Source: Bacteroidia bacterium
Lineage (GTDB): Bacteria; Bacteroidota; Bacteroidia; Chitinophagales; Saprospiraceae
DNA: 64,000 nucleotides
Assembly (NCBI GenBank): GCA_030429045.1
Contig: JAUIEA010000006.1
Span: 3,879-67,878 of the forward strand
Direction: 5' to 3'
Shown: piece after piece, positions 2,335 through 27,420 of the stretch
How the letters are laid out: every line of letters starts with the position of its first letter
How positions within the stretch are numbered: the stretch's first letter is position 1
Program-made: the position numbers and the translations under genes
The notes under the pieces: model-generated
The model's database searches: none
Seen by the model: only the letters and a program-made list of their open reading frames with translations
Told to the model about the DNA's origin: nothing

Positions 2335-5202
2335 TTATTCCAGTAACACGAACCCGGCCCAGGCATAGGGATCGATGTATCGTTCTCGCATGGCGGACTG
2401 GGCTTCCCGGAAGGCATCCGGGACCGACATCTCCAATTCCAGCCAGTTTCGATAAAAGGCAACCATCAGATCCTTGGTCTGATGATCTGGCACCTGCCAC
2501 AGGGACATGATGATATAGCGAACGCCGGCCATTGCAAAAGCACGTTGCAGCCCGTACACTCCTTCACTTCCATTGATCTCCCCGAGTCCGGTTTCACAGG
2601 CGGACAAAATAACCAGCTCGGTCCCCCTTAGATCCATGTGACAGATCTCAAAGGCAGACAGGATCCCATCTTCAAGTCCGGCTACAGGCGAATTTCCCGA
2701 CCACACATGGTTCCCACCTGCCAGGATCAGGCCAGACCGCATTAAAGGATTGCCGCTGGTTTTCAGGGTCGGTCCGGTATCCGATCCGCCATCCGGTTGA
2801 TCCTCAAAAAAGTAACCGTGGGTTGCCAGGTGGATCACACGTGGTGAAAGCAGGTTTTTTTCGATCAGTTTAAAATTGTCCTCACTGGCCGAATGCCCGT
2901 TCAGGCCTGAAACATGAAATCCCGCTCCTTCCAGGATCGAACTGACTTGTGTCACCTCTTTCAGACTCCCCGGTAGGGACCGCCATGAGCCAGTGCCTCC
3001 GCGATCCAGGGCGACGACCATTTCCGCTCCCGAGGGATCCAGAAAGGTTGGTGCCTCAATACCAGACATGATCGCCAGGCTATCCATGGCATAGGAAGCA
3101 CCTCCGATCAGGAAGGCATCCCGTCCAAACCGGATATTTCCAAAGGTGTTCTTTTCACCCAGTTGAGCTGTATTGCCAATATGTCGAATCGCATACACAT
3201 CTGATAAGGTACTATCGGAGTTGATCGGGATCGCCCCGATATGGATCCGATGCAGCAACCCGGCCGGAGAAATAAATACCGTCCGGCAATCTTCCAGAAA
3301 TGGCGTTACCGGTTTCCAGATCAGGTCAAACAAGGTCAGATGGTCATCTTCCACAGGTGACAACCCCCGCTCCGGAATAGTATACATCCGAGATACATAA
3401 TCCGCTCTGCGTTCCGTATCCGAGCCCATTAATTGACCTAACTCTTCTTCTGTACACAGTGGAATAAATCGAGGGTGGGACCACTCCTGTCGAAGCAGAT
3501 AGGCTGCGTATTGCGTTCTGCTCTGTTTGCCTGGCCCCTCATGGATGATGAAGCGATCAAATTCGATGGCCATTTCCCCTGGGTTCAAACCATCCCTGAC
3601 CTCCCGCCAATCGGGGGCTCTTTCCGCATCAAATTCTGGCAGGTGGGTCACCAGATACTGTTCGATCCGTTCCGCCTCCATCTCCAGGCTGTCCAGTTGA
3701 TCACCTCGTTCGACCAGGGGGATACTGTATTCATCCGCGATTCGGGTATGCAGATCCAGCCAGCGGCGATACTGACTGTGAATACCCTCATCCGGATGCG
3801 ATCGCAAGCGCTCCAGTAAACGGGTTTTCAGGTGAAGCAGAATGCCCTTCCGAAGCATGGCATTTTCATAATTCTGACACACCAGGGAATCATATTCAGC
3901 ATGTGTCATCAGGAAGGCGGAGATCCGATCATAATCCATGGCCAGATCAGCTGCAAAAGACAATTGAAGGCGCTCATTGAGGAAAGGCAACCGATTCATC
4001 GTCTGGAACCGCAGGTTCTGTCCCAATTGCAGATAAACCTCCATGGCCGCCTGCACCTCTTGCATCGCCTCCAGATTCGCAGCCCGGCCACTGAGGAACC
4101 AGCCAAATTCCTGGTGTTGGATCCCCAGTGATGCTGCCCCTGCCGCCAGGGCCTTGCGGTAGTGTTCATCGGCTGAATCATAGGCACCGATCCGATGGTG
4201 GTTCTGCGCAAGATTGTAGTGCCCTGTTGCACAATATAAATGTTGTGACCCCAGATGTTCACTCACGATTGCCAAAGCTTTTTCCAGGAGTGGAATGGCT
4301 TGGTCATATTGCCCCAGCCGGTAGTAAATGGTTCCCAGGTTATTCAGACGGTAAGAATAGTTCAGATCACTGTCACTGACTCTTTCTTCATAGATCTCCC
4401 TGGCGCGAATCAACATATCCAGGCACTCTTCAGTGCGACCCTCTGCAAATCGGGCATATCCCAGATTGTCCATGATCGTGACCTGACTCTCGAAGTCTTC
4501 CGGAGAAAGGTCCTGAAAAATAGAAAGTGACTCTGTATAAGCCTCTCCTGCCAATCGACTATCGCCCAGGGCCTGATACACCAGTCCGAGATTGTTTAAT
4601 CGGGCCCCGTACGGGAGGCTTCTCTTGCCCAGGAGGGCCTCCGTCTCTGCAACAGATTGCAGGATGAGTTCCAATGATTTTCCCAGATCACTTTTGTCTA
4701 ACAGGACCAACCCCTTGTATGCCAGGGCCAGGGGATATTCCGGGGTCTTTTTTCCGGGCCCTGTTTCCATGTCATTCAAATACCGGTCTGCAAGGGAGAG
4801 GGCCGTCTCCAGTTCGCCCATCTGACGATGATATTCGATCAAATAGACTTCAGACGAATCCGTTTCCAAGCCGGCTTCCAGGAGGAGAGCAGCACAATCC
4901 ATGTGTTCCGAGCGCAGGGCAAGATCCAGGGGATTCAGGCCATTGGCATTCGTGACATCCAGGTCTCCTCCTGCCTTGATCCATTGTTCGACCTCCTTTG
5001 CCTGGCCGGAGGCTGCCGCATCCAGAAGGGCGGATTGTGCAAGGAGGGGCGTGTTACAAATCGCGAACAGACCGACGAGGATTAGTATTTGAAGAGGATG
5101 AATTTTCCAGAGGAAGGTGCAGCAGACAGCCCGTTTCCTGCTCATCTCTGACCTTCGTTTTATGGTGATTGTCGTTTGATCCAACAGCCTGCCTGGTTTC
5201 AT
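2335..5202 (-). CDS. Secreted ANK-TPR-CHAT domain protease (caspase-fold, clan CD)
   Basis: 955-aa ORF. The C-terminus carries the CHAT signature HLATHGYF ... ILSACETG. There is an ankyrin-like repeat (NANGLNPLDLALRSEHMDCAALLLEAG) and several TPR-like repeats (LNNLGLVYQALGD, LNNLGTIYYRLGQYDQA). The hydrophobic N-segment ILILVGLFAICNTPLLAQS is signal-like. The ATG overlaps the upstream stop as TAATG; an alternative start (MSRKRAV) lies at 5145. Confidence 0.85.
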   Translation of the reverse strand: MKPGRLLDQTTITIKRRSEMSRKRAVCCTFLWKIHPLQILILVGLFAICNTPLLAQSALLDAAASGQAKEVEQWIKAGGDLDVTNANGLNPLDLALRSEHMDCAALLLEAGLETDSSEVYLIEYHRQMGELETALSLADRYLNDMETGPGKKTPEYPLALAYKGLVLLDKSDLGKSLELILQSVAETEALLGKRSLPYGARLNNLGLVYQALGDSRLAGEAYTESLSIFQDLSPEDFESQVTIMDNLGYARFAEGRTEECLDMLIRAREIYEERVSDSDLNYSYRLNNLGTIYYRLGQYDQAIPLLEKALAIVSEHLGSQHLYCATGHYNLAQNHHRIGAYDSADEHYRKALAAGAASLGIQHQEFGWFLSGRAANLEAMQEVQAAMEVYLQLGQNLRFQTMNRLPFLNERLQLSFAADLAMDYDRISAFLMTHAEYDSLVCQNYENAMLRKGILLHLKTRLLERLRSHPDEGIHSQYRRWLDLHTRIADEYSIPLVERGDQLDSLEMEAERIEQYLVTHLPEFDAERAPDWREVRDGLNPGEMAIEFDRFIIHEGPGKQSRTQYAAYLLRQEWSHPRFIPLCTEEELGQLMGSDTERRADYVSRMYTIPERGLSPVEDDHLTLFDLIWKPVTPFLEDCRTVFISPAGLLHRIHIGAIPINSDSTLSDVYAIRHIGNTAQLGEKNTFGNIRFGRDAFLIGGASYAMDSLAIMSGIEAPTFLDPSGAEMVVALDRGGTGSWRSLPGSLKEVTQVSSILEGAGFHVSGLNGHSASEDNFKLIEKNLLSPRVIHLATHGYFFEDQPDGGSDTGPTLKTSGNPLMRSGLILAGGNHVWSGNSPVAGLEDGILSAFEICHMDLRGTELVILSACETGLGEINGSEGVYGLQRAFAMAGVRYIIMSLWQVPDHQTKDLMVAFYRNWLELEMSVPDAFREAQSAMRERYIDPYAWAGFVLLE

Positions 5203-7157: not shown

Positions 7158-7261
7158 CGTAGTAAAATCGTCGGCTTCGGAAGATAAGACAAATTCAAGA
7201 GCCCACAGTTACCCGGGCTGGTCCGGAAGATTAAAACTCAGGAAAGTTGCACGGCAATCCC

Positions 7262-7269
7262 TATATTTA
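7262..7269 (+). promoter_or_regulatory. Putative -7 box (TATATTTA) for caspase-TPR paralogue A
   Basis: The motif CCTATATTTAA lies 24 nt before the ATG at 7294. The same motif recurs upstream of paralogue B (10950) and of the OMP gene (19026). It matches TAnnTTT but ends in A instead of G. Confidence 0.35.
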
Positions 7270-7293
7270 ACTATTACTGGATATACCTGCCCA

Positions 7294-14492: not shown

Positions 14493-16739
14493 GTGAAGCA
14501 CAACGTCGCCGCTCATCCATGTATTCATGCGCTATCCGGGCACTGGATAGGATGGAGGCTGCTGATCCTGCTCAGTTGCATATACGCACCACTACATGCA
14601 CAAGAAAAGGGGCAATCCGGCCTGATACTCGACCAATGGCACCATGCGGGTGGAATTACCAGAGCGGTCGTGGTCGGTATATCCGACTACCAGCATCCGG
14701 GTATTCCGGACCTGCGGTTTGCACATCGGGATGCGGAAGCATTTGCATCGTATCTGGACCAAAGCTTGCCCCGGACAGACTCCATCAGCAATATTGACAT
14801 ATTCCTGAATGAAACAGCAACCTCAGCTTCCATATACGGGTCCTTGCAAACGCTGGAAGATGAAAGTCAGAAAGGAGATAGAGTCATCCTGTATTTCTCC
14901 GGTCATGGCGATATGGAATCTCTTGAATCCGCAAAAAGCTATCTCCTCTGTTATGATGCCGCCTACAATAATTATGCGATCGGCGGCACCCTCGAATTTG
15001 GTCAATTGCAATCCTGGGCAGAACGACTTGTAGCGAATGGTGTGACGTTGCTCCTGTTCATGGATGCCTGTCATGCTGGCAACCTGGCCGGAGAATCGAT
15101 TAACGGGGCAGGACGAACGGCACAAATTTTCAGGGACTCCTTCGCTTCAGCGACAAAGTACCTGGCCTGCTCGCCACAAGAATCCAGTTTTGAAAGTGAC
15201 GCCTGGGGCAATGGACATGGAGTCTATACCTATTTTCTGATCCAGGGTTTGGCTGGCATGGCAGACCAGGATCACAATTCGTCGGTCAGCTACTGGGAAT
15301 TACAGGAATTCCTCGAATCAAAAGTAGTTCAAGAGACCGGCTTCCTGCAACACCCCGTCGGGCCAATGCAAAATCTGGAGGAAACGCTGACACATGTCGA
15401 TTCCGCCTTATTAAAACACGTCCAGACAGCAATTGAACATGAGTTCAAAGTTATTCCATCACTGGTCGTACGTTCATTTGAAAATCAACTTCTGACGGCC
15501 CTAGATACAAGCATATTTTCTGACTGGGACCGATTTAAAAATGCCATTTCTGCAGGAAGGCTTCTCCATCCTGAGCACGACTGCGCGGAGTTCTATTATC
15601 ACAAACTGATCAACAGACCCGATCTATCGGCTGCTTTCAGAAGATACATTTCCAGAACATTTGTAGCCGGCCTGCTTAACGATGGCCAACAAGCCATGAA
15701 AGCCATTTTAGCCGCAGATACAAAAACCATCAGTGGGGGAAAGGAACTGATCTTATCCTATGCACACTATCCGGCTCACTTTCAGAAAGCCGCAGAAATA
15801 TTAGGTGTACATCATGACATGCATTCAACCGTGAAGTCAAGGGCATTCCTGTTTGAAGGAATTCTTGCTTATATGAAAAATGCATCCAGAGTGGACTCCA
15901 CTTCGATCAGCCAGGTCATGACGCCTTTGTTAAACTCCCTCCAGTTGGAGCCCAATTCTGCAGTGACTTGTTTTTACATCAGCTTATGTCAAATGGTCCA
16001 GGCCAAGAATCCGGAAGTGGCACTCAATTATACGTATCAGGCACACCATCTCGCCCCCTCCTGGCTGGTCCCGCTGACACACATGGCTTATTATATGGCA
16101 CGAGCCAAGGATAGACGACTGGAAGACTCCAAGGCGCTGCTGGATCGCGCCTTCAACATCGACGAAAATGACCCGACCGCTTGGCTGGCTCTCGGCGCGC
16201 TCTACCATTACCTGCCCCACACACCAAAGTCCATCGAAGCCTTTCAGAAGGTTCTTTCAATTGACTCCACCTATGCCATAGCCTGGACAAATCTGGGTGT
16301 TGAATACATCATTCTGGAGGACTACGACCAAGCTGAAAAAGCCTTTACAAAAGCACTTCGTGAAAACCCGAACCAATCTGCGGCCTGGCATAGTCTGGGA
16401 TGCCTGTCGACCCGAAAACAAGATCTGGATTCTGCCGAAATATTTTATCAAAAAGCTGTTTCGTTAAGCCCCGAAATGATCGTGGCGAAAGATAGCTTAT
16501 GCTCTACATATCTGGATCAACATGCAATCGACAAAGCATACCATGAATGCCAATCCATCATCCAGATTAAAGATCAATATGCATCTGCCCATTTTAAACT
16601 GGCCAAAATAGCCGCGCTGCGAAACAATCGTGACACAGCACTGGATCACCTTCAAAAATGCCTGGAGTCCGATCCCGGATTTATAGACGACATTAGAAAA
16701 AATGTCACCCTGTATCAAATCTATTCGAATCGAGAATGA
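14493..16739 (+). CDS. Secreted caspase (C14) - helical/TPR protein
   Basis: 748 aa with a GTG start per the ORF track. The hydrophobic N-segment is WRLLILLSCIYAPLHAQ. Dyad motifs YFSGHGDME and MDACHAG are present. The C-terminus has TPR repeats (WLALGALYHYLPHTPKSIEAFQKVLSID, AWTNLGVEYIILEDYDQAEKAFTKAL). Confidence 0.8.
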   Translation: MKHNVAAHPCIHALSGHWIGWRLLILLSCIYAPLHAQEKGQSGLILDQWHHAGGITRAVVVGISDYQHPGIPDLRFAHRDAEAFASYLDQSLPRTDSISNIDIFLNETATSASIYGSLQTLEDESQKGDRVILYFSGHGDMESLESAKSYLLCYDAAYNNYAIGGTLEFGQLQSWAERLVANGVTLLLFMDACHAGNLAGESINGAGRTAQIFRDSFASATKYLACSPQESSFESDAWGNGHGVYTYFLIQGLAGMADQDHNSSVSYWELQEFLESKVVQETGFLQHPVGPMQNLEETLTHVDSALLKHVQTAIEHEFKVIPSLVVRSFENQLLTALDTSIFSDWDRFKNAISAGRLLHPEHDCAEFYYHKLINRPDLSAAFRRYISRTFVAGLLNDGQQAMKAILAADTKTISGGKELILSYAHYPAHFQKAAEILGVHHDMHSTVKSRAFLFEGILAYMKNASRVDSTSISQVMTPLLNSLQLEPNSAVTCFYISLCQMVQAKNPEVALNYTYQAHHLAPSWLVPLTHMAYYMARAKDRRLEDSKALLDRAFNIDENDPTAWLALGALYHYLPHTPKSIEAFQKVLSIDSTYAIAWTNLGVEYIILEDYDQAEKAFTKALRENPNQSAAWHSLGCLSTRKQDLDSAEIFYQKAVSLSPEMIVAKDSLCSTYLDQHAIDKAYHECQSIIQIKDQYASAHFKLAKIAALRNNRDTALDHLQKCLESDPGFIDDIRKNVTLYQIYSNRE

Positions 16740-17440
16740 GTCAATTCCAACAGAACAAGTACACACAAATGAAGCATTTCATTACAACTCTAAAAGGTCT
16801 GACCCTGCTGCTTTTGATGTTCGTGACCAGCAATGCCCTGAAAGCGCAGACTGTTCCCACAACCGATTCTATACAAATCAAGATCTTTGACCTGGATGAT
16901 GACATGAGACGCGGAAAATTGAAAGGCATTTCCGTAGATGACAAGAAAAGCTATTTTGGTCTGAAAGGCGAAAAAAGAGTACCCCTTAAAAACAACAGTA
17001 TTATTAAGATAACAAGCCGCCAGGACAGACCCATCAGCATTCAAAGCAAGAATTGGAAGAAGATCCAAAGTCTGGATGTCTATATGGGTCATGAAAATGA
17101 CCTTCCAAATGATTGCATCGTCGAAGGAAGAGTATTCCTAACGAATAAAGATGGTGAAACTCAAATAGCGGCAGCTACGATTGTTGAAATAGGTCATGAG
17201 AAAACAAATTCAACCAAAACTGATATCCTTGGTCGGTTTGCACTGAAGATCAGTAAAAAGACACGCAAATTGGGCATCATTCTTCATAAGCCTGGAATTA
17301 CTACTGATGTCAATACCCCGCCCGATATTGACCTGACGATCACAACAGATGCAGGTGACCACACGAAGATCGATGTTTATGTCGATGACCAGGGAGCAGG
17401 CGGGACAAGGAAGGGAATCAGCACGACAATTTGTTATTGA
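16736..17440 (+). CDS. Secreted hypothetical protein with possible carboxypeptidase-regulatory-like (CarboxypepD_reg) beta domain
   Basis: 234 aa. The ATGA overlap with the upstream caspase gene suggests coupling. The likely true start is MKHFITTLKGLTLLLLMFVTSNALKAQ at 16769. EGRVFLTNKDGETQIAAATIVEIGHEKTNSTKTDILGRFAL resembles CarboxypepD_reg. The DNA is AT-richer than its surroundings. Confidence 0.5.
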   Translation: MSQFQQNKYTQMKHFITTLKGLTLLLLMFVTSNALKAQTVPTTDSIQIKIFDLDDDMRRGKLKGISVDDKKSYFGLKGEKRVPLKNNSIIKITSRQDRPISIQSKNWKKIQSLDVYMGHENDLPNDCIVEGRVFLTNKDGETQIAAATIVEIGHEKTNSTKTDILGRFALKISKKTRKLGIILHKPGITTDVNTPPDIDLTITTDAGDHTKIDVYVDDQGAGGTRKGISTTICY

Positions 17441-17496: not shown

Positions 17497-18987
17497 ATGT
17501 CAAGACTTCACCTTTCTCTCTGCCTGCTCATTTGTGTTGCGTTTCAGGGACTAGCCTCTGCCCAATCCGCCGACCTCATGCGCCGGATGTACCGGCACCA
17601 CGAAGAGGTGAAGGAAGCGGGCCTGGATGAACGTCGCTTCAAGCATACCGATGTGCTGGCCCGGATAGACCGACTGCGATCAGATCCCGACTTTGGCATA
17701 TCCACTGCCGGGCATTCGGTCATGGGTCGCGAGATCAAAGCCGTTTCCTGGGGAAATGGACCCACCAGGGTGCTCCTGTGGACCCAGATGCACGGTGACG
17801 AACCCACCGCCACCCTGGCCACCCTGGACCTCTGGAATGCCCTCCAGGATGAGTTATTCCTGCCGGAGGCCGCCAGGCTGAAGGAGCGACTGACCCTGGT
17901 GTTCCTGCCCCTCCTCAACCCGGATGGGGCCGAAGTCTACGAACGACAGAACGCCCTGGGCATCGACCTCAATCGCGATGCCCTTCGCCTGACCAGCCCC
18001 GAAGCGCAGATCCTCAAACACTGGCGGGACAGCCTGGATGCCGACTGGGGCTTCAACCTGCATGATCAGCACCGTTATTACAGTGCCGGATCCGGTAATC
18101 TGACCAGTGCGATCGCCTTCCTGGCTCCTCCTCCCGATCACAGCCGTAGCAAACCCCCGCATCGCCAGGACGCCATGCGCCTGATCGGTGGACTGTCCAA
18201 CGGCCTGCAAAACCTCATCCCCGGGCAGGTGGCCAAGTATTCCGATGCCTTCGAACCGAGAGCCTTCGGAGACAATTTTACCAAGTGGGGCACCCGGACC
18301 ATCCTCATCGAAGCCGGATGGCTGCCCGGCGATGATGAAAAACAGGCATTGCGCCGACTTTACTTCGCCACCCTGGTGGCTGCCCTGGACGGGATCGCCA
18401 AAAAAACCTATATCAACGAGCCGATCAAAACGTATAACGACATTCCCTTCAACCAGAATCACCTGACCGATCTGTTGATCAGGGAAGTCAAGCATCAGGT
18501 GGGGCGTGCTACCTACCTGATCGATATCATCTACAAGCACCAGGAAGAAACCAACACGGACGGTCGCAGCTGGGTGCGCAAGGCCCGGATCGAAGAGATC
18601 GGCGATCTTTCACCCTACGGCGCCTATACCACCCTGGATGGGCAGGGGAAGTGGTTGATCGTTCCTGCCCGGACCCACCCCCATGTCATGCTGGACATGG
18701 CCGAGCTGCGGGAAGAGCCACTTACCGACCTCCTGCTCGGCGGAACGGCCGTATTCCGCATGGATCAGGTCACCCTGGACCAGAGGTATGCCGATGCTCC
18801 ACTGGCCATCCGTCGCCTGGACGATGATGCCAGTGAGCCCATCGGACTCGGCCACAACCCCACCTTCTATCTCCAGGATGAAAAAGGAAGTCTTCGGTAT
18901 CTGATCGTCAACGGCAAGGCCTGGGATCTACAGGGGAGTGACTGGAAATCTGCTCTTCAGAACCTCATTGCCAGGGGATTGGATTAG
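17497..18987 (+). CDS. Secreted zinc carboxypeptidase, peptidase M14 family
   Basis: Start chosen at MSRLHLSLCLLICVAFQGLASAQS, which is signal-like; the ORF-track frame opens at 17431. QMHGDEPTAT supplies the HxxE zinc ligands, and LLNPDGAE and NRD motifs are typical of M14. Confidence 0.75.
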   Translation: MSRLHLSLCLLICVAFQGLASAQSADLMRRMYRHHEEVKEAGLDERRFKHTDVLARIDRLRSDPDFGISTAGHSVMGREIKAVSWGNGPTRVLLWTQMHGDEPTATLATLDLWNALQDELFLPEAARLKERLTLVFLPLLNPDGAEVYERQNALGIDLNRDALRLTSPEAQILKHWRDSLDADWGFNLHDQHRYYSAGSGNLTSAIAFLAPPPDHSRSKPPHRQDAMRLIGGLSNGLQNLIPGQVAKYSDAFEPRAFGDNFTKWGTRTILIEAGWLPGDDEKQALRRLYFATLVAALDGIAKKTYINEPIKTYNDIPFNQNHLTDLLIREVKHQVGRATYLIDIIYKHQEETNTDGRSWVRKARIEEIGDLSPYGAYTTLDGQGKWLIVPARTHPHVMLDMAELREEPLTDLLLGGTAVFRMDQVTLDQRYADAPLAIRRLDDDASEPIGLGHNPTFYLQDEKGSLRYLIVNGKAWDLQGSDWKSALQNLIARGLD

Positions 18988-19053: not shown

Positions 19054-19803
19054 ATGAAACGTTATCTATTTTTTGCTCTCCCGTTTCTGATTCTTGCCTT
19101 GCTCGCTCCGGTCAGCAGCAATGCACAAGAGCCGGAAACGGATGATACAGATGTCAATTTTGATTTTGATCCGACCAAATTCAAAATGGCAAAGAAGTCC
19201 GGAAAACGAACCAATCTGGAGGGGTATTTTGGTATCGGTCCCACCTTTGTGACCTCCAATTTTGAAGACGGCAATTCGTTTGTTCCTGAATTCAAGCCCT
19301 GGAAATCGTGGAGCACGGACTTTGGCATGATGTTCCGCACCCGACTGGGCAGCGCCGGCAGTTCCTTCAATATCAACTATGGTTTGTTGTGGCGCTATCT
19401 CAATGTGGAGACTGACAAAGCCTATCTGGATTGGGACCCGGACACGGAGATCCCGATGTATGAGAATTCAGACATGGATGACGTGACCAATACCGAACTC
19501 AATGTGCACACCCTATCCATCCCGCTTATGCTGGAATACCAGAACAAGGTGGCCATCGCTGCCGGCGGGTTTGTCGCTTTTCGGGTGGCCAGCAGCTCTG
19601 AACTCGATGGTGAATTACCCAACGGTGATGCAGAGTCCACATTACGAGCCGACTTTGGCCTGAACGATGTCCTCTACGGCGTGACCGGCCAGATCGGTTA
19701 TAAAAAGGCCCGCATCTATGTCAACTACTACCTCAACAATCTCTTCAAGGAGGACATGCCCTATGACTTCACGGTGATGAACGTCGGTATCGCCTTCTTT
19801 TAA
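19054..19803 (+). CDS. Outer-membrane beta-barrel protein (porin-family/OmpA-like barrel)
   Basis: Starts at MKRYLFFALPFLILALLAPVSSNAQ, a signal peptide. The sequence shows alternating beta-strand patterns and ends ...MNVGIAFF, an aromatic C-terminal residue typical of OMP barrels. Confidence 0.65.
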   Translation: MKRYLFFALPFLILALLAPVSSNAQEPETDDTDVNFDFDPTKFKMAKKSGKRTNLEGYFGIGPTFVTSNFEDGNSFVPEFKPWKSWSTDFGMMFRTRLGSAGSSFNINYGLLWRYLNVETDKAYLDWDPDTEIPMYENSDMDDVTNTELNVHTLSIPLMLEYQNKVAIAAGGFVAFRVASSSELDGELPNGDAESTLRADFGLNDVLYGVTGQIGYKKARIYVNYYLNNLFKEDMPYDFTVMNVGIAFF

Positions 19804-19876: not shown

Positions 19877-20803
19877 TCACTTCTGAACCTTGGGCACCAG
19901 TACCGTATAGGTCTTGCGCGCCTTATTGGTCAGCTTATTGTCCTTCAACCAGGGATTGTACACCTTCAGCGTCCGGTAGTCTGTGCCGTACTTGATCGCA
20001 AAATCGCCCCAGTTCGGAACCGGTTCATTCACTTCGATCCGATAGCACTCCTGGAAAGGCGGATAGTAATCGGCAGCGGTCAATTGATACCCGAAGGAAG
20101 CCGGATCCTCCAGGATGGTCTTGAGTGCGACGATGCGAAACAGATACCGGGATGTTTCACTGTTGAGGTTGACCTCTTCATAGGTCGATGCCCGTTGCAC
20201 CTCCATTTCCCGGGCAAGTCTCGGTCCACCCATGTTATAGGCGGATGCTGCCAGCTTCCAGCTGCCGAATTTCTCGTAATACGATCTGAGATAGGCACAG
20301 GCCGCACGGGTGGATTTTTCCAGATGATTCCGTTCATCGATCTCACTGTTGATCTCCAGGTCGAAGGATTTTCCGGTCGCCTCCATGAATTGCCACACCC
20401 CTTTTGCGCCGGCAGAGGAGGTACCATTCATCAGGGCGCTTTCAGCCACGGCCAGATACTTGAGATCATCCGGCACACCCTCTTCCTTGAGGATCGGTTC
20501 GATGATCGAGAAATACCGTCTGGACTTCTTCAGCACCAGCAGCGTACTGGAATGATAGTATGCATTGACGATCAATTCACGATCCAGTCGCTCCCGAATA
20601 TCCATATTGGCCATATCCAGTTGTTCACCGGCGAAGGTAAATGCCCTGTCGGTGGCCACGGAGGTGATCATCTGAGGGAGCCCTGTGCCATTGATTTCCC
20701 TGTCCGGACCACTCGTTTCCGGGTCCAGAAAAGCCGATGCGGTGAGGGTCAGTCCGACAGTGAGAGTGAAGAATGAAAGCCAGTTCAGCCATGAAATTTG
20801 CAT
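19877..20803 (-). CDS. Lytic transglycosylase (SLT domain, MltD-like)
   Basis: 308 aa. YLAVAESALMNGTSSAGAKGVWQFMEATG is the SLT catalytic-Glu motif. An AYNMG motif is present and the N-terminus is a hydrophobic anchor or signal. Confidence 0.8.
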   Translation of the reverse strand: MQISWLNWLSFFTLTVGLTLTASAFLDPETSGPDREINGTGLPQMITSVATDRAFTFAGEQLDMANMDIRERLDRELIVNAYYHSSTLLVLKKSRRYFSIIEPILKEEGVPDDLKYLAVAESALMNGTSSAGAKGVWQFMEATGKSFDLEINSEIDERNHLEKSTRAACAYLRSYYEKFGSWKLAASAYNMGGPRLAREMEVQRASTYEEVNLNSETSRYLFRIVALKTILEDPASFGYQLTAADYYPPFQECYRIEVNEPVPNWGDFAIKYGTDYRTLKVYNPWLKDNKLTNKARKTYTVLVPKVQK

Positions 20804-20995: not shown

Positions 20996-21026
20996 TTTGA
21001 TGATTATGTCGTCATCAATCATCAAA
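20996..21026 (+). promoter_or_regulatory. Perfect 10-bp inverted repeat (TTTGATGATT-N11-AATCATCAAA) immediately upstream of the DUF4397 gene
   Basis: Read directly from the sequence. The right arm ends 10 nt before the ATG at 21036. It could be an operator or a 5'-UTR hairpin. Confidence 0.35.
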
Positions 21027-21035
21027 AACTAACTC

Positions 21036-23909
21036 ATGAGAAAGTTTACCTTCCTCCTCATCCTGTTCTTCGTGGGTCTCGGCCTCCAGGCTCAAACCGC
21101 ACGATTACAAGTCATCCACAACTCTCCGAGTCCAACCGTGGATATCTGGGTGAATGGCTCTCCGTATGAAACCGATTTTGCATTTCGGGAAGCAACAGAA
21201 TTCAGGACCGTTCCTGCAGGAGTTGAGCTTGAAATCGGGATCGCTGTATCGCCCAGCTCATCACCTGGCGACATCATCGCCACCTTTCCCGTGACGTTGA
21301 CAGAAGGTGAAACCTATGTAGCGATCGCCAATGGGGTGGTCGGAGACATGATGACTCCATTCAATATCGAAGTTTTACCGGGTGCCAGCGAAAGCAGCAA
21401 TAATCCTGGCAATGTTGACATTGGCATATTTCACGGTTCACCAGATGCGCCCAATGTAGATGTGGACGCCAGACGGGTCATCACCCTGGTCGAAGACCTG
21501 CCTTTTGCTTCCTTTGAACCTTACCAGACCGTACCTGCCGGTGATTTCATCCTGGATGTCAGACCTGCTGGATCCTCCGTAGTAGCGGCCACCTTTTCTG
21601 CCAATCTCACCAGCCTGGGCGGACAGGCAGGGATGGTATTTACATCCGGTTACCTGGGCAAAAGCCCCGAATTCGGTCTGTATGCCGCCTTACCTGACGG
21701 AACTGTCGTGCCTCTTCCGGCACTGACCACCTCTCGATTACAGATCATCCACAACTCACCCGAGCCGACCGTGGATGTCTGGGTAAACAACCAGCCGTTC
21801 CGCACGGGCATCGGATTTCGTGAGGCCACTGAATTCATTGACGTGCCCGCGAACACCGATCTGATGATCGGCATTGCACCCTCTCCAAGTAGCGATCCAT
21901 CAGATATTATCTACACCTTGCCTGCCAACCTCCTGGCAGGAGAGACCTATGTGGCTATGGCCTCTGGCGTTGTCGGAGACATGAACACCCCATTTGGTAT
22001 TTCAGTATTTGATGCGGGACGGGAGTCATCAACTGATCCGGATCAAGTCGATCTGCTTGTTTTCCATGGTTCGCCAGATGCCCCGTCAGTGGATATTGAT
22101 GCGCGAAACGCAACTCCCCTGGTCCAGGATCTGGCCTTTGGCAGTTTCACAGAAAGTTATATCAGTGTTCCTGCGGATCGGTATATCCTGGATATTTCTG
22201 CCGCCGGCACGGATCCCATTGTGATCAGCTTTGAAGCCGACCTTTCTGCTGCAGGAGGAGCATCAGCCGTTGTATTTGCCTCTGGTTTTCTTGGCAACAC
22301 ACCTTCCTTTGGCGTCTTTGCCGCCCTGCCTGATGGCACTGTATTAGCCTTGCCGGCCATTGAGGCCGCCCATGTGCAGATCATCCATAACTCCCCTTCA
22401 CCCACGGTCGATATCTGGGTCAACGATGAGCCATTCAAGACGGATTTCGCTTTCCGGGACGCCACCGCATTCCTGGAAGTACCGGCAGGCGTGACGCTGA
22501 ATATCGGTATTGCGGTATCCCCGAGTTCTTCACCAAGTGACATCATTGCCACCTTCCCGGTCAATTTGACCAATGGTGAAAATTATCAGGTCATTGCAAA
22601 CGGGGTGGTCGGCGATATGATGACACCCTTCAACCTGGAAGTCCTGGAAATGGCCCGCCTTCGGGCAGTGGCTGAGGACCAGGTAGACATCCTTGCTTTT
22701 CACGGTTCACCGGATGCACCTTCAGTAGATATCCGCGCTCGAGGTGTCGGGACCCTGTTTCCTGACCTGCAGTTTGCTGAAGGCAGTGGTTATGCTTCCG
22801 TGCCTGCGGATCGCTATATCCTGGACATTTCTGCGACCGGCACTCAACCCATTGTGGCCTCCTTTGAAGCCGATCTTTCGATCCTTGAGGGTCAGTCGGC
22901 AACGGTGATCGCGTCCGGGTATCTCGGTCAGGATCCCATGTTTGGCCTCTTTGCCGTCCTGGCAGACGGAACTGTAGTGCCCTTGCCGGCCATCCAGGCC
23001 GCTCGCCTGCAGATCATCCACAATTCACCGTCACCCACGGTCGATATCTGGGTCAACGATGCACCATTCAAGACGGATTTCGCCTTTCGGGACGCCACCG
23101 CATTCCTGGAAGTCCCTGCCGGAGTGATACTGAATATCGGTGTTGCACCATCACCAAGTTCTTCTCCTGCAGACATTATCGCAACTTTCCCGGTAGAGCT
23201 GACGAATGGATCTACCTACATCGCCATGGCTCATGGCGTCGTTGGAAATATGACGACACCGTTTGATATTGCCATCTATGACCAGGCGAGAGAGTCTTCT
23301 GGTTCCTCAACCGAGGTCGATCTGCTCGTCTTCCACGGCTCTCCGAATGCGCCAACCGTAGACGTGACCATCGGCAACTCGCAGGTCCCCGTGGTGGACA
23401 ATCTGGAATATGGCACCTTCAACGGGTATCTCACCGTGCCGGCAGGCGAGTATCAGTTGAACATCACTCCGGCAAACGACAACACCAACAACCTGTTCAG
23501 CTATAATGCCGACATCTCGTCTCTGGGAGGTGGTTCAGCAACCGTCTTTGCGACCGGATTCCTGGGGCAATCACCGGCATTCGGACTGTGGGTCGCCCTG
23601 GCAAATGGCACTACCTTTCCGCTCAGCACCATCACCTCTACGGTCAGCCCTGTTCTGGGCGAATTGAGCATCTGGCCCAACCCGGTCCGGGAGGTGATCA
23701 ATCTCAGCACTCAGATCGGGAAAGACACCAGAGTCACCATGACCCTGGTAGATGTAAATGGACAGCCTGTGCAGAGCCAGAATCTCATTGCCGGTCCAGG
23801 TACGGGTAATATCCAGATCCCGGTTCCTTCGCTGCCGGCAGGGATCTACTTCCTGCAGCTCCAGCCAGAAGGCGGTGCAATCTCGACCCTGAGGGTCCTC
23901 AAACAATAA
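21036..23909 (+). CDS. DUF4397 repeat protein, T9SS-secreted
   Basis: 957 aa with signal peptide MRKFTFLLILFFVGLGLQAQ. The block RLQ(V/I)IHNSP.PTVD(I/V)WVN... recurs four times, which I read as DUF4397 domains in pairs. The C-terminus LSIWPNPVREVINLS...GIYFLQLQ is a Por/T9SS sorting domain. Confidence 0.8.
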   Translation: MRKFTFLLILFFVGLGLQAQTARLQVIHNSPSPTVDIWVNGSPYETDFAFREATEFRTVPAGVELEIGIAVSPSSSPGDIIATFPVTLTEGETYVAIANGVVGDMMTPFNIEVLPGASESSNNPGNVDIGIFHGSPDAPNVDVDARRVITLVEDLPFASFEPYQTVPAGDFILDVRPAGSSVVAATFSANLTSLGGQAGMVFTSGYLGKSPEFGLYAALPDGTVVPLPALTTSRLQIIHNSPEPTVDVWVNNQPFRTGIGFREATEFIDVPANTDLMIGIAPSPSSDPSDIIYTLPANLLAGETYVAMASGVVGDMNTPFGISVFDAGRESSTDPDQVDLLVFHGSPDAPSVDIDARNATPLVQDLAFGSFTESYISVPADRYILDISAAGTDPIVISFEADLSAAGGASAVVFASGFLGNTPSFGVFAALPDGTVLALPAIEAAHVQIIHNSPSPTVDIWVNDEPFKTDFAFRDATAFLEVPAGVTLNIGIAVSPSSSPSDIIATFPVNLTNGENYQVIANGVVGDMMTPFNLEVLEMARLRAVAEDQVDILAFHGSPDAPSVDIRARGVGTLFPDLQFAEGSGYASVPADRYILDISATGTQPIVASFEADLSILEGQSATVIASGYLGQDPMFGLFAVLADGTVVPLPAIQAARLQIIHNSPSPTVDIWVNDAPFKTDFAFRDATAFLEVPAGVILNIGVAPSPSSSPADIIATFPVELTNGSTYIAMAHGVVGNMTTPFDIAIYDQARESSGSSTEVDLLVFHGSPNAPTVDVTIGNSQVPVVDNLEYGTFNGYLTVPAGEYQLNITPANDNTNNLFSYNADISSLGGGSATVFATGFLGQSPAFGLWVALANGTTFPLSTITSTVSPVLGELSIWPNPVREVINLSTQIGKDTRVTMTLVDVNGQPVQSQNLIAGPGTGNIQIPVPSLPAGIYFLQLQPEGGAISTLRVLKQ
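21102..23637 (+). repeat. Four in-frame tandem repeats of ~633-636 bp inside the DUF4397 gene
   Basis: Repeat starts (R/H-L/V-Q-I-IHNSP) lie at 21102, 21735, 22371 and 23004. Copies 3 and 4 are near-identical at DNA level over their first ~190 nt. Confidence 0.8.
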
Positions 23910-23937
23910 GAATAGGGGTTTTTACATAGTTCAGCAC

Positions 23938-23970
23938 GCCACCTCATCGAAAGATGGGGTGGCATTTTTA
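23938..23970 (+). terminator. Rho-independent terminator after the DUF4397 gene
   Basis: GCCACCTCATC-GAAA-GATGGGGTGGC stem with one G-T pair, followed by ATTTTTA. Confidence 0.6.
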
Positions 23971-24135
23971 TTCCGATCCACCTGATCTGCCAGCCAGCAT
24001 GAACGCCAATCCCAACCCTTTTCAAGGAAAGCTGGATAGATGATCAATTGACTCCTCACAGATACACGAATACAGGCTGCTGCTTCCTGATCCCTCTTGA
24101 AGATCAGATATGCTGAACACCAATGGACCCAAGCA

Positions 24136-25815
24136 TTATCTAGCCGTGGAAACCGGCATATGCGGATCGTAATTCCCTTTGATGACCGGACTCTGGCGCA
24201 TACCGGTATAGGCACGGACATTCACATAGATATAGTCATACAGCTCCTGAATGCTCACCAGTGCATCGCCGTTATAATCGGCCTCCCCTTTCAATCCACG
24301 GATCAGGAAGTGACTGAAGACGCCCTGCCGAAGACCGCTGGATTCCAGAGAGGTCTCCTCTGATTTGGAAGACATGATGATGGCCGTGCCCTGGGCGGCT
24401 GCAAACAGATCCTGGTAGAAGTTTACCAGCTCGGGCTGGACTCCAACAGCCCGCTCCGCAAAGAGGCCTCCGCTGTGGCAGGCATCGGCAAAGCAGATCT
24501 TGTAGCGTGCCGGACTGTTCTGCAGCAGGTCGCCGATCTCTTCATGATGCAATTTTCGATTGTATCCGTCAAAATCAAAGGGCAGGAATGCCCCCTTGAC
24601 ACCGTGGCCGGAGAAATAGAGGACCACCAGGTCATCCGGACCAGCCTGGGAGAACAGATGCTGGATGGTTTCCCGGATATGATCCAGGGTGGCCTCCTCA
24701 TCCACCAGGATCCGGATCTGGCTGTCCGGCAAGGCGCCTCCTTCCGGACTTTTCAAAAATGCGTATACCCGGTATGCATCGTCGTCCGTATAACGCAAGG
24801 CCGGCATATGGTTGTATGCGGCCACTCCGACCACGACCGCCCAAACTTTCTGCGGGCGCGCATGCAGCTTGGGCTCATTGATCTGGACAGCACCGGTATC
24901 GACGGCACGTTCGGCCAGGAGCTCCGCTTCCATTTCTTCCGGAATCTGGTACTGCCCGTTGGTCCACTGACCGCGGATCACTGTGCCATCCCGCTTGTAC
25001 AGCGTACCCCGACCGTTGAATTGCCCTTCGTCCCATTCTCCCGAATAGCGGTCGCCATTGGCAAAGACCACCGATCCCTGCCCGGCAGGCCGGCCGCGTT
25101 CGAATTCCCCCTTATAGGTGGCAGAACCATCCTGATAGACATAGGTGCCCACCCCTTCTTGACAATCTCCTTCAATACATCCGAGGCTGATCTTTTCCGG
25201 CGATGCGGAACCGATGTACTCGCCATCCCGCCATTCTCCCTGGGTGATCTCTCCCTCTGCAGGGTACAGCGTACCCTTCCCGTGAGGGAAGTTGTTGCGA
25301 AAGGCACCGACGTATTTATCCCCGTTGGCATAATACCAGGTGCCCAGTCCAAGCAGTTTCCCGTTGACGAACTGGCCGTCATATTTGCTTCCATCCGGAT
25401 AGGCGAACGTCCCCAACCCGTTCTGGCAATCGCCGGCGATACACCCGGATTGAATATCCGTGCCATCGTTATCTTCCTCCTTGTCGGAGATCACATATTC
25501 CTCCAGCGGGTGTCCGGCTTCATCGACCGGCTTGCCCTTGTTCCACAAGCCCGAGTATTTATACCCGTCCGCATAGGTCTTGGTGCCTTTGCCCTGGGGA
25601 TACCGGTGCTTCCATTCCCCCTGATACTTGCTGCCGTCGGTGTAATAGCAGGTCCCGATCCCGTGAATCTCGCCATCCTTGAAATCCCCGATATACTTTG
25701 CACCCGAGGGATAGACGTAGATCCCCCTGCCATTCCGGCAATCGCCGGAAATACACTGCGCCTGCACCATCGCAGTGCCGAACAGCATCAATAGGAAGAG
25801 GAGGGCAATCCGCAT
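24136..25815 (-). CDS. Secreted MORN-repeat - caspase (C14) protein
   Basis: 559 aa with signal peptide MRIALLFLLMLFGTAMVQAQ. About a dozen MORN repeats are present (Y.G.(F/W)..G...G.G). The C-terminal caspase domain carries YFSGHGVKG and ADACHSG. Confidence 0.85.
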   Translation of the reverse strand: MRIALLFLLMLFGTAMVQAQCISGDCRNGRGIYVYPSGAKYIGDFKDGEIHGIGTCYYTDGSKYQGEWKHRYPQGKGTKTYADGYKYSGLWNKGKPVDEAGHPLEEYVISDKEEDNDGTDIQSGCIAGDCQNGLGTFAYPDGSKYDGQFVNGKLLGLGTWYYANGDKYVGAFRNNFPHGKGTLYPAEGEITQGEWRDGEYIGSASPEKISLGCIEGDCQEGVGTYVYQDGSATYKGEFERGRPAGQGSVVFANGDRYSGEWDEGQFNGRGTLYKRDGTVIRGQWTNGQYQIPEEMEAELLAERAVDTGAVQINEPKLHARPQKVWAVVVGVAAYNHMPALRYTDDDAYRVYAFLKSPEGGALPDSQIRILVDEEATLDHIRETIQHLFSQAGPDDLVVLYFSGHGVKGAFLPFDFDGYNRKLHHEEIGDLLQNSPARYKICFADACHSGGLFAERAVGVQPELVNFYQDLFAAAQGTAIIMSSKSEETSLESSGLRQGVFSHFLIRGLKGEADYNGDALVSIQELYDYIYVNVRAYTGMRQSPVIKGNYDPHMPVSTAR

Positions 25816-25830
25816 CGGACAAAGATAGAG

Positions 25831-27420: not shown

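Follow-up and report, generated by a model that had tools for sequence, protein, structure and literature searches.

Why seven caspase-like proteases lie side by side on one bacterial chromosome, and where in the cell they would act, is the question raised by this locus. Within the window, by which we mean the whole 64,000-nucleotide stretch of DNA analysed, about 25 kb of a Saprospiraceae chromosome carries seven caspase-like protease ORFs (C1 to C7), all at the positions given in an earlier note on this DNA. Pfam assigns six of them to Peptidase_C14 (C2–C7) and one to CHAT (C1), and they make up 7 of the roughly 14 genes in the protease stretch. The remaining 36 kb of the window hold no C14 or CHAT gene, and Haliscomenobacter, the most caspase-rich genome on record, has only 4.15 caspases per 1000 proteins (PMC3501461); the clustering of the seven proteases therefore exceeds chance. 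Pfam and motif reading recovered the dyads and the Ank/TPR, DUF4384, TPR and MORN modules described in the earlier note. Its observation of a seven-protease array is thereby confirmed overall, while its interpretation is partly supported.

C1 (2335..5202, minus strand) encodes a predicted exported Ank + TPR + CHAT protease of 955 aa with leader LLA↓QS (the arrow marks the putative cleavage site). Its Pfam matches are CHAT (8e-52), TPR_12 (6e-33) and, below threshold, Ank_2 (1e-4); the CHAT match (PF12770) scores 176.9 bits and is full length (profile positions 6–286 of 289), with HLATHG and LSACETG as dyad motifs. The protein starts at M1, coupled to the C2 stop by a TAATG junction, or at M20, and the orthologue in locus L002 (71% identity) has its own leader, PA↓Q. 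C2 (5202..7157, minus strand; 651 aa, leader IFA↓QP), divergent from C3, would be an exported C14 + DUF4384 protease (Peptidase_C14 9e-23; DUF4384 3e-7, 30.8 bits for a cut-off of 27) and has orthologues of 69–70% identity in L002 and L003. The C2/C3 intergenic spacer (7158..7293, from sequence reading) presumably carries the promoters of both genes. Roughly 30 nt before the C3 ATG it reads TATATTTA, whose resemblance to a Bacteroidetes -7 element makes it a candidate for one.

On the plus strand follow two predicted exported long C14-TPR proteases, each matching C14 and many TPR families in Pfam: C3 (7294..10740; 1148 aa, leader VAA↓QP, C14 5e-17) and C4 (10980..14396; 1138 aa, leader MVA↓QP, C14 2e-17). 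The C3 start at 7294, unlike the longest-ORF start at 7042, matches that of its orthologues, of which the one in L002 is 61% identical. Among 8000 candidates scored, C4 has 218 homologues at E<=1e-10, from Saprospiraceae and Chitinophagaceae and named 'caspase family protein'. C3 and C4 read as old tandem paralogues: they share 53% identity overall, 87–95% in the protease domain and 17–50% in the TPR part, and their DNA is 77% identical even where best conserved. C5 (14493..16739, plus strand; 748 aa, leader LHA↓QE, start codon tentative) would be an exported short C14-TPR protease (C14 7e-14 and many TPR families), closest to its orthologue in L012 (53%) and only 32–37% identical to the L002 and L008 copies.

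The last two proteases are encoded on the minus strand, 15 nt apart. C6 (24136..25815; 559 aa, leader VQA↓QC; MORN 3e-33, C14 5e-17) is a predicted exported MORN-array + C14 protease with 2635 homologues at E<=1e-10 among 8000 candidates scored, and identity to it is 55–91% among the 120 matches listed. C7 (25831..27420; 529 aa; MORN 2e-33, C14 4e-18) has the same two domains and a probable lipoprotein-type signal. At 39% identity, C6 and C7 likewise appear as old tandem paralogues.

The C14 domains of C2–C7 score 52.6–81.6 bits against Pfam PF00656 (gathering cut-off 21.4), and every His and Cys motif quoted earlier was found in all seven proteins. Alignment of C2 puts these motifs opposite the catalytic His and Cys of Arabidopsis metacaspase-4 and opposite the corresponding motifs of GSU0716 (PDB 3bij); the protein is in register with PDB 3bij and 6w8s. 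Among C14-TPR homologues the His, the Cys and the Asp at C-2 are invariant (122/122), and all but two retain the beta1-loop Asp (120/122); in the MORN-C14 alignment of 58 sequences, H404, C446 and D444 are invariant. The AF2 model of C6 (pLDDT 77) matched MORN1 in Foldseek, together with legumain (4awb), Yca1 (4f6o) and a Candida metacaspase (7qp0), at TM(target) 0.53–0.57. At the level of this predicted model the caspase/haemoglobinase fold of C6 is confirmed. The check on folds and dyads that had been proposed earlier was thus carried out by Pfam on all seven proteins and by modelling on C6, with a favourable outcome, and as judged from their dyads the seven proteases are catalytically intact. 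We take the two retained Asp of the C14 proteins (C-2 and beta1-loop) to be equivalent to the metacaspase S1 pocket of TbMCA2/Yca1; from this equation solely, the C14 proteins would cleave after Arg or Lys.

We then turn to where these proteins would be located. The leaders of C1–C6, and those of three genes downstream of C5 (a small partner, an M14 peptidase and an OMP), all terminate in A↓Q, the Bacteroidetes 'Q-rule' signal-peptidase-I site (PMC5837995, PMC10653852). By a heuristic leader test with few controls, the N-terminal hydrophobic windows score 2.1–3.3 versus 0.55–1.1 in cytoplasmic controls. A small residue followed by Q after the h-region was found in 101/110 and in 118/120 homologues, against a background of 18.5%, and leaders are retained in orthologues. 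The six AQ-type leaders pointed out in the earlier note are thus Q-rule sites kept across homologues; the predicted export of these six proteins as Sec/signal-peptidase-I substrates is well supported, and on these sequences the export signal is a family-wide trait. For C7, the note was right about a hydrophobic N-terminus lacking the AQ ending, which resembles a lipoprotein signal rather than a degenerate Sec signal. When the pattern [LVI][ASTVI][GAS]↓C after the h-region was sought, C7 orthologues read APATG↓C in L008 and LALAG↓C, a canonical lipobox, in L009, while the window protein has TTGGG↓C, whose GGG↓C is non-canonical. In C7, then, the signal is probably of the lipoprotein type, and the mature protein would begin with Cys.

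None of the seven proteases has a T9SS C-terminal domain (Por_Secre_tail/CHU_C) at E<=0.01, although the same search detected such tails in the window genes 21036–23909 (the positive control), 28344–30125, 30180–32150 and 56750–59182. The seven proteins therefore probably stay in the periplasm. Between the two locations proposed earlier, the periplasm is retained as probable and the surface appears unlikely. The CxxxxC pairs conserved in the MORN blocks of the MORN-C14 family would fit disulfide bonding in an oxidising compartment. Against our main reading, a thiol protease inside an oxidising periplasm calls for explanation.

The earlier note had stated that these proteases lack partner genes, which does not hold for C5 or for the MORN pair. 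The C5 stop overlaps, in an ATGA junction, the start of a gene (16736..17440, plus strand) for a small, secreted, fast-evolving protein of 234 aa with leader LKA↓QT, whose start is probably M12 at 16769; this junction, TAATG and the 15-nt gap were all read directly in the DNA, as had been reported. The partner has no Pfam, NCBIfam or PADLOC match at normal thresholds, shows repeated sub-threshold CarboxypepD_reg matches at residues ~115–185 and gives a poor predicted model (pLDDT 43); a search over 1.84 billion representative proteins yielded just 5 relatives. A C5-like gene comes before it twice in L002, twice in L012 and also in L008; the L011 copy precedes the M14 and OMP genes, and the contig ends upstream of it.

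Downstream of the partner lies a putative M14 zinc carboxypeptidase gene (17497..18987, plus strand; leader ASA↓QS), with Pfam Peptidase_M14 at 7e-10 (39.4 bits for a cut-off of 21.6, covering only part of the profile). The motifs HGDE, NPDG and DLNRD were seen, the nearest PDB entry is 4a37 (weak, E=0.003), and identity is 75–85% in L002, L008, L011 and L012. It is followed in every case by a gene for a small outer-membrane beta-barrel-like protein (19054..19803, plus strand; leader SNA↓QE; conserved at 74–86%) whose OMP_b-brl_2 match (6e-4) is below cut-off. An SLT/MltD-like lytic transglycosylase gene (19877..20803, minus strand; Pfam SLT 1e-17; NCBIfam MltD 5e-23, under cut-off) is a conserved neighbour, with the same position in L002 and L008. 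The M14, OMP-like and SLT/MltD-like neighbours named earlier are thus present, the last two with OMP_b-brl_2 and MltD matches below threshold. The partner is 38–40% identical where M14 is 75–77% identical, and between close genomes the cassette of C5 and partner varies, is duplicated or has decayed. Across these loci a C5-like gene, a translationally coupled partner, M14 and OMP always keep company in one predicted operon.

The MORN pair also has a constant companion. A DUF4920 lipoprotein gene (27496..28068, plus strand; Pfam 1.5e-31; probable start M24 at 27565, LWS↓C) diverges from C6/C7. L008 and the Lewinellaceae locus L009, both of which retain the C6/C7 pair, show the same arrangement, with DUF4920 identities of 78% and 52%. 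In the loci compared, the pair always appears beside the DUF4920 lipoprotein gene. In L009 it is unlinked from the other cluster genes, and it is very widespread in Saprospirales.

Gene order and orientation are shared by three Saprospiraceae MAGs, and the array breaks up with distance. L002 (with P0247, on one contig) and L008 are syntenic and L003 is partly so; FdhD and Thx flank the locus in three genomes. L003 has a WG_beta_rep gene in place of CHAT, L004 carries the long C14-TPR gene alone, and in Chitinophagaceae the long C14-TPR gene occurs with a short C14 gene as a separate module. In metagenomes, 42/80 loci have at least two C14 genes, as do 22/29 of those of at least 15 kb. A second, different C14 class lies within 6 kb of the long C14-TPR gene in 15/20 loci with enough flank; these adjacent classes are 25–31% identical to the window genes and are not recent duplicates. 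The triad of C2-like, long and C5-like genes recurs in L039/L057 and L044 at 28–30% identity; a C2-like gene adjoins the long C14-TPR gene in L014, L022, L039, L044 and L057, and a C5-like gene in L077 and L088. The single array of seven proposed earlier thus gives way, on this comparison, to a composite of at least four modules found separately in other lineages. Co-location of all seven may have little functional meaning, because the long C14-TPR gene is sometimes solitary and the Lewinellaceae MORN pair is unlinked.

We consider it reasonably probable that this is a conserved Saprospiraceae neighbourhood joining independent modules of exported, competent clan-CD cysteine peptidases, which would carry out limited proteolysis in the envelope. 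The modules would be (a) a triad of C14 classes, in which C2 is transcribed away from C3, C4 and C5; (b) C5 with its small beta-rich secreted partner, M14 and the small OM barrel, in an operon; (c) the C6/C7 MORN pair with the DUF4920 lipoprotein; and (d) C1, the CHAT protein. The proteins would work in the periplasm, C7 being anchored to a membrane, and would cut after Arg or Lys in target proteins picked by the TPR, MORN, Ank and DUF4384 modules. C3 and C4, almost alike in their protease parts and different in their TPR parts, suit the picture of 'one blade, different recognition modules'. The partner may serve C5 as its cognate substrate, inhibitor or adaptor, and the M14 carboxypeptidase could trim new C-termini. 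These sequences make it most likely that the proteases process, activate or turn over envelope proteins by limited proteolysis, rather than serving cytoplasmic suicide or anti-phage signalling. A sensor battery or a proteolytic cascade, as suggested in the earlier note, stays a conjecture.

Known systems offer possible models. In NlpI-Prc type pairs, a periplasmic TPR adaptor selects envelope proteins, for instance peptidoglycan hydrolases, for proteolysis. The locus would resemble them in its periplasmic TPR and protease and in its conserved MltD-like neighbour; there, however, adaptor and serine protease are separate, while here a single protein unites the TPR with a cysteine protease. The type III-E CRISPR Craspase TPR-CHAT (Csx29) with its substrate Csx30, and eukaryotic separase with its pseudosubstrate inhibitor securin, each combine helical repeats, a clan-CD protease and a small fast-evolving cognate, a pattern that C5 and its partner may follow. 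These systems are cytoplasmic or nuclear, and related to C5 by fold only. The gingipains (C25) of Porphyromonas gingivalis are exported Arg/Lys clan-CD endopeptidases, and its M14 enzyme CPG70 trims C-terminal basic residues; the likeness lies in exported Bacteroidota clan-CD proteases alongside an M14 carboxypeptidase. Gingipains, in contrast, belong to family C25 and have adhesin modules, not TPR ones, and a T9SS C-terminal domain, whereas the window proteases are C14/CHAT and lack the T9SS tail.

This last precedent, and the fact that Saprospiraceae are protein hydrolysers, lend something to an extracellular, nutritional role, in which C14 Arg/Lys endopeptidases, M14 and the OM barrel would digest environmental protein for uptake as gingipains and CPG70 do. 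All the proteins are predicted to be exported, M14 and OMP share the C5 operon, and a survey of 2016 put forward, as speculation, that metacaspases serve Bacteroidetes in breaking down phytoplankton-derived polymers and Betaproteobacteria in extracellular protein degradation (PMC4933709). We nevertheless find this role unlikely: the T9SS domain, the route of secreted Bacteroidota hydrolases, is absent from all seven although neighbouring cargo has one, TPR arrays of 400–850 residues and MORN repeats suggest selective protein recognition rather than bulk digestion, and no SusC/SusD-like or peptide-uptake gene lies within the cluster.

It is distinctly unlikely, in our view, that the genes are neighbours by history only, piled up by tandem duplication within a huge paralogous family. 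C3/C4 and C6/C7 are indeed tandem duplicates, Saprospiraceae genomes are unusually caspase-rich (PMC3501461), and the solitary MORN pair and long C14-TPR gene and the replacement of CHAT in L003 would suit such a history. Yet the duplicates are old, as their identities show, and distinct C14 classes are adjacent in three quarters of the flank-complete loci. The synteny comparison suggested earlier found order and orientation retained in relatives, not scattered, which therefore argues against a chance pile-up.

Conflict or programmed death akin to gasdermin-protease, CHAT/Craspase or STAND-caspase modules, in which the TPR would sense an invader and the protease cleave the 234-aa partner as an effector of death or arrest, we regard as very improbable. 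Bacterial gasdermin-protease operons likewise place a repeat-fused caspase-like protease, of C14 or CHAT type and frequently with TPR, LRR, WD40 or NACHT, beside a small possible substrate (10.1101/2021.06.07.447441), and the variable C5 cassette with its fast-evolving partner would suit conflict. However, known systems are cytoplasmic whereas every component here has an export signal, and the locus is syntenic, outside a defence island, flanked by FdhD/Thx and without mobile-element genes. Neither the partner nor any neighbour matched a gasdermin in PADLOC or Pfam. Profile searches of the whole window found no STAND/NTPase domain in any ORF, no TIR domain, no Pfam or PADLOC match to Cas7-11/gRAMP or Csx30/31, and no CRISPR-like repeat array, in agreement with the absences noted before. 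In PADLOC the proteases match a generic caspase model only; against the NCBIfam EACC1-type model NF047832 they score 37–95 bits (cut-off 140), and the high identity of the listed MORN-C14 genes across families is unlike defence genes. That the proteins are non-catalytic scaffolds using the caspase fold for binding is hardly credible: pseudo-orthocaspases form 8.6% of bacterial caspase homologues but just 10/1078 Bacteroidetes sequences (PMC6426788), and His, Cys and S1 Asp are invariant in both homologue sets.

Envelope limited proteolysis thus remains our preferred reading, and its predicted location and gene company are unlike the studied bacterial caspase systems. The bacterial orthocaspases (MEROPS C14B; PF00656) share the catalytic domain, His-Cys dyad, D-x-C motif and TPR fusions (Asplund-Samuelsson et al. 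2012, PMC3501461; Klemencic et al. 2019, PMC6426788), but the same surveys do not contain these clusters, the MORN-C14 family, Q-rule leaders or the C5-partner-M14-OMP operon. The multi-paralogue clusters and the partner operon appear undescribed so far, and our literature search found no exported bacterial C14 protein with a demonstrated function. The earlier view of prokaryotic caspases as mostly cytoplasmic effectors overlooks the 2012 survey, which took N-terminal helices to be likely signal peptides, assigned 98/671 sequences to a membrane category, most with an N-terminal helix, and reported TPR as a top fusion partner and a record 28 caspase homologues in Haliscomenobacter, itself a member of Saprospiraceae (PMC3501461). 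Between the transglycosylase gene and the MORN pair lies a T9SS cargo gene (21036..23909, plus strand) encoding 8 x DUF4397 and a Por_Secre_tail (Pfam; TIGR04183); its DNA has a periodicity of 633 nt, and it occupies the same position in L008.

All seven open reading frames that the earlier note had listed as caspase-fold proteases were recovered in the ORF list, each with its quoted His/Cys motifs. Pfam detected CHAT (8e-52), TPR_12 and a weak ankyrin match in C1 (2335-5202, minus strand), and Peptidase_C14 (9e-23) with an above-cut-off DUF4384 match (3e-7) in C2 (5202-7157, minus strand). C3, C4 and C5 (7294-10740, 10980-14396 and 14493-16739, plus strand) join Peptidase_C14 to long TPR arrays, and C6 and C7 (24136-25815 and 25831-27420, minus strand) join it to MORN arrays. 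The C2 motifs fall in register with the active-site His and Cys of Arabidopsis metacaspase-4 and with the matching motifs of GSU0716 (PDB 3bij). Direct reading of the DNA gave gene junctions of TAATG, ATGA and 15 nt, and the start of C3 at 7294, rather than the longest-ORF start at 7042, is backed by orthologues. The observation of seven clustered proteases is thus confirmed. No further C14 or CHAT gene was found in the other 36 kb of the window; at the locus they account for 7 of about 14 genes, a density far exceeding even the record of 4.15 metacaspases per 1000 proteins in Haliscomenobacter, which has 28 copies (PMC3501461). An exact-sequence look-up of C2 gave no record, and the only match of a C5 scan of genome contigs was an unrelated TPR protein from Akkermansia.

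All seven proteins have an N-terminal hydrophobic window with a mean Kyte-Doolittle value of 2.1-3.3 over 10 residues, resembling T9SS cargo and porin controls from the window (cytoplasmic controls, 0.55-1.1). The AQ leader ending, proposed as an export signal from the sequence, equals the published Bacteroidetes Q-rule site, where signal peptidase I cleaves ahead of a Gln that is then cyclised (PMC5837995, PMC10653852). A small residue followed by Gln occurs after the hydrophobic region in 101 of 110 long C14-TPR homologues and 118 of 120 MORN-C14 homologues (background in interior segments, 18.5%), and orthologues in other genera retain such leaders. C7 has a hydrophobic N-terminus and no Gln, as had been noticed, because its class appears to use a lipoprotein-type signal: the leader ends in LALAG followed by Cys, a canonical lipobox, in a Lewinellaceae genome (L009), in APATG followed by Cys in GCA_016710115.1 and in TTGGG followed by Cys in the window. 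A conserved CxxxxC pair opens every MORN block in an alignment of 58 MORN-C14 proteins, which would fit disulfide formation outside the cytoplasm.

No T9SS sorting domain was found in the seven proteases by searches that detect one in four other genes of the window, which argues for the periplasm rather than the cell surface or the medium. Of the two locations suggested by the earlier note, the periplasm is therefore favoured and the cell surface is unlikely. Our best prediction, from a heuristic leader test and the family-wide pattern, is that the proteases are periplasmic, with C7 tethered to the membrane. Nutritional proteolysis outside the cell is an alternative that is plausible for Saprospiraceae, weakened by the absent T9SS tails and by the huge recognition arrays.

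The absence of STAND/NACHT, TIR, gasdermin and CRISPR partners holds true for the whole window, in which none of these genes, no Cas gene and no CRISPR array was found, and the NCBIfam EACC1-type caspase model scores the locus proteases well under its cut-off. The broader claim of no known partner genes fails, since conserved partners are present in the C5 operon and in a DUF4920 gene beside the MORN pair. The C5 stop codon overlaps the start of a gene for a 234-aa secreted protein (16736-17440, plus strand; the partner), followed by an M14 carboxypeptidase (17497-18987) and a small outer-membrane-barrel-like protein (19054-19803). The partner received no family assignment; exhaustive HMMER searching of 1.84 billion representative proteins returned only 5 relatives, and a word index 2. 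Family members are recognisably homologous in alignment and give recurrent CarboxypepD_reg-like Pfam matches at one shared place, all sub-threshold. A single-sequence AlphaFold model of the partner reached a pLDDT of only 43.

The complete unit of C5-like gene, partner, M14 and barrel is found in GCA_021738725.1 (L002), in GCA_016710115.1 (L008), where M14 is fragmented, and in a further locus, L012; in L011 the partner, M14 and barrel genes are present and the contig ends upstream. The C5-like, partner and M14 segment is duplicated in L002, with one M14 copy broken, and the C5-like and partner pair occurs twice in tandem in L012. At its end, the broken M14 copy has ~45 residues that correspond to the TPR cap at the C-terminus of C3/C4. 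In GCA_942490895.1 (L003) the C5-like gene has decayed into three fragments; the cassette turns over among close genomes (L002 13598-22453; L003 13676-14684; L012 27-6343). Partner identity is 38-40% where that of M14 is 75-77% and that of C5 is 53%, about twice the divergence of its neighbours. The idea that C5 and the partner are simply fast-evolving was partly rejected: with a closer C5 orthologue in L012 (53% identity), paralogue turnover accounts for part of the divergence from the L002 and L008 copies, but the partner still diverges about twice as much as M14. The partner/M14/barrel unit was absent from 80 metagenomic loci and is thus confined to a narrow Saprospiraceae clade.

Variability of the C5-partner cassette and its resemblance to gasdermin operons (10.1101/2021.06.07.447441) suggest a defence or cell-death system. 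This reading is contradicted by the export signals, by the absence of all known partners, and by the stable housekeeping flanks and strong conservation of the locus. A gasdermin identity for the partner was ruled out by its signal peptide and the absence of PADLOC and Pfam gasdermin matches.

Gene order was compared across related genomes; close C4 relatives are recorded as 'MAG: caspase family protein [Saprospiraceae bacterium]'. GCA_021738725.1 has the order FdhD, Thx, CHAT, C14/DUF4384, two long C14-TPR genes, C5-like units, M14, barrel and SLT, with a C6-like gene on the same syntenic contig. The right half is found in GCA_016710115.1 as DUF4920, two MORN-C14 genes, DUF4397 cargo, SLT, barrel, M14, partner, C5-like and long C14-TPR; in GCA_942490895.1 a WG_beta_rep gene replaces CHAT. 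The MORN pair is divergent from an adjoining DUF4920 lipoprotein gene in GCA_016710115.1 and in the Lewinellaceae genome, where both adjoin ribosomal protein genes and no TPR-caspase lies nearby. One genome has a solitary long C14-TPR gene, and in Chitinophagaceae one or two such genes converge on a gene for a C14 protein that has 430-450 aa and belongs to another class. Since its modules are found apart in these lineages, the array is, on comparative grounds, a composite of at least four modules.

In a census of 80 metagenomic loci retrieved with the family alignment, at least two C14 genes were present in 42 loci, and in 22 of the 29 loci of at least 15 kb. Among the 20 loci with a full-length long C14-TPR gene and at least 3 kb on either side, 15 had, no more than 6 kb away, a C14 gene from another class: one of a 'short' class in nine loci, C2-like plus C5-like genes as in the window in three, and only a C5-like gene in three. 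Four CHAT genes lie beside C14-TPR genes in one locus (L091). We read the adjacency of different exported C14 classes as recurrent and ancient, not as an artefact of recent duplication. A meaningless pile-up of paralogues, which the earlier note had considered fatal to its proposal, is contradicted for the array by synteny and census, and probably does apply to the location of the MORN pair beside the rest.

The 'short' exported class has 430-480 aa, an uncharacterised N-terminal domain and no member in the window; examples are L006 17145-18494 and L007 13509-14807 (Chitinophagaceae) and 18 ORFs of metagenome loci (e.g. L015, L017, L027, L030). Its gene is convergent, often end-overlapping, with a long C14-TPR gene. 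These proteins have Q-rule leaders and an SGHG motif; the possibility that they lack the catalytic Cys was rejected, as alignment puts a conserved DCCN motif at that position.

Among 122 aligned C14-TPR proteins there is no variation in the catalytic His/Cys dyad or in the Asp at Cys-2, and 120 of them also have an Asp in the first loop. In the 58 MORN-C14 proteins, H404, C446, D444 and a DDD motif are invariant. The Asp pair may be equated with the two positions which we take, from TbMCA2 and Yca1, to form the acidic S1 pocket giving metacaspases their Arg/Lys specificity. C6 was modelled with AlphaFold from 58 homologues (pLDDT 77); the model resembles MORN1 crystal structures in its N-terminal half, and legumain and yeast or Candida metacaspases in its C-terminal half. 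These invariant residues and the modelled fold make it very unlikely that the C14 proteins are pseudo-enzymes.

C3 and C4 share 53% identity overall, with 87-95% protein and about 77% DNA identity in the protease domains and 17-50% identity in the TPR regions. Recent gene conversion was rejected, since DNA identity in the protease domain is only 77%; high protein and low DNA identity indicate purifying selection. This pattern would be expected of one conserved catalytic module joined to diverging recognition modules.

Taken together, we consider it rather probable that the proteases of the locus are exported and active and that their conserved neighbourhood is composite; any one particular cellular role is doubtful, and the interpretation offered by the earlier note is partly supported. 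The proteases have intact dyads and protein-interaction repeats, their genes form conserved operon-like runs, and C5 has a fixed set of partners. C1 to C7 would act by limited proteolysis, cutting periplasmic or envelope proteins after Arg or Lys, with the TPR, MORN, Ank or DUF4384 modules selecting the targets. Cleavage products may be trimmed by the M14 enzyme, the small partner could serve C5 as its cognate substrate, inhibitor or adaptor, and the barrel might act as anchor or conduit. There are useful analogies: NlpI-Prc couples a periplasmic TPR adaptor to a protease, gingipains and CPG70 unite clan-CD Arg/Lys endopeptidases with an M14 carboxypeptidase, and in separase-securin and TPR-CHAT-Csx30 a clan-CD protease fused to repeats goes with a small protein cognate to it. 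Adjacent classes (C2-like, long and C5-like, or long and 'short' in Chitinophagaceae-like contigs) could also form a periplasmic cascade or hetero-complex, in which TPR arrays would receive an envelope signal and one caspase-like enzyme would activate the next. The C5 partner would then serve either as the substrate under control or as an inhibitor of the securin kind, and filamentous Saprospiraceae would remodel their envelope or lyse in a regulated way as a result. We judge this improbable; if true, caspase signalling would have a counterpart outside the cytoplasm.

To our knowledge, bacterial caspase homologues are numerous and roles are known only for cytoplasmic ones (gasdermin activators, Craspase and a toxin-antitoxin-cleaving orthocaspase). 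Export, TPR fusion and paralogue richness are the part of the apparent strangeness already in the literature: a 2012 survey placed TPR among the commonest fusions of prokaryotic metacaspases, assigned 98 of 671 to a membrane category, most with an N-terminal helix that is possibly a signal peptide, and classed 30 more as extracellular (PMC3501461), and a 2019 survey counted 1078 Bacteroidetes sequences, nearly all with true dyads (PMC6426788). The protein families are likewise known, the C14-TPR and MORN-C14 proteins being recorded as 'caspase family protein'; the novelty lies in the predicted extracytoplasmic setting and in partners unlike those of any characterised bacterial caspase system. 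No description of these clusters, the MORN-C14 family, Q-rule leaders on caspase homologues or the partner operon was found in the open-access literature, which is not proof of absence. The locus points to large, strongly conserved Bacteroidota caspase families apparently built for the periplasm (MORN-C14 alone has thousands of database matches), different C14 classes kept as neighbours, and one class with a fixed operon of a small fast-evolving protein, an M14 carboxypeptidase and an outer-membrane barrel. Although function is inferred, it is a solid, testable lead into the biology of exported bacterial caspase homologues, with a candidate substrate or inhibitor encoded next door and cultured relatives as entry points for experiment. 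It could raise the question of what such proteases contribute to the biology of the envelope and of multicellular or filamentous bacteria; if they are ordinary periplasmic housekeeping enzymes, its value lies mainly in better annotation of 'caspase family protein' entries.

A sigma-70 promoter scan, with a model ill-suited to Bacteroidota, gave 15 hits against 16.6 expected from shuffles, and a terminator scan 26 against 17.9 (sd 5.0), not clearly enriched. The sole strong terminator hairpin (2306-2327; 9-bp, GC-rich, with a T-run) is situated between the C1 stop and the FdhD gene; in L002 and L003 the gene for ribosomal protein Thx separates FdhD from the cluster. A PF06491 disulphide-isomerase gene occupies the left edge of the window (230-646, minus strand). 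Rfam found no tRNA or other RNA family in 1-30000, so an ARAGORN tRNA-Met call inside the C6 coding sequence (24635-24715, minus strand) is probably spurious.

The DUF4397 T9SS cargo gene (21036-23909) consists of units recurring every 633-636 nt at 61-84% DNA identity. Its L008 orthologue is split into several short ORFs, like the SLT and M14 genes there, which suggests frameshift errors in that assembly. A sulfur-related cluster at 36539-46797 encodes a sulphur-transport protein, two MBL-rhodanese proteins, a SulP/STAS permease, a molybdopterin oxidoreductase and a 4Fe-4S/NrfD subunit. A 2016 survey reported Bacteroidetes metacaspase contigs near sulfur-metabolism genes (PMC4933709); the proximity here may be coincidence. 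The gene at 47656-49815, 20 kb from the protease cluster, encodes a TPR and adenylate/guanylate cyclase protein that begins with a hydrophobic leader, and in the Lewinellaceae genome a TPR-cyclase gene directly adjoins the DUF4920/MORN-C14 module (L009 2393-5233). Finally, a 199-nt tandem repeat (50496-51002; 2.5 copies, 93% identity) directly adjoins a 978-aa gene with DUF7619 and Recep_L domains (51010-53946), around which GC falls to 0.37 from about 0.53 elsewhere, and this stretch may be foreign DNA.
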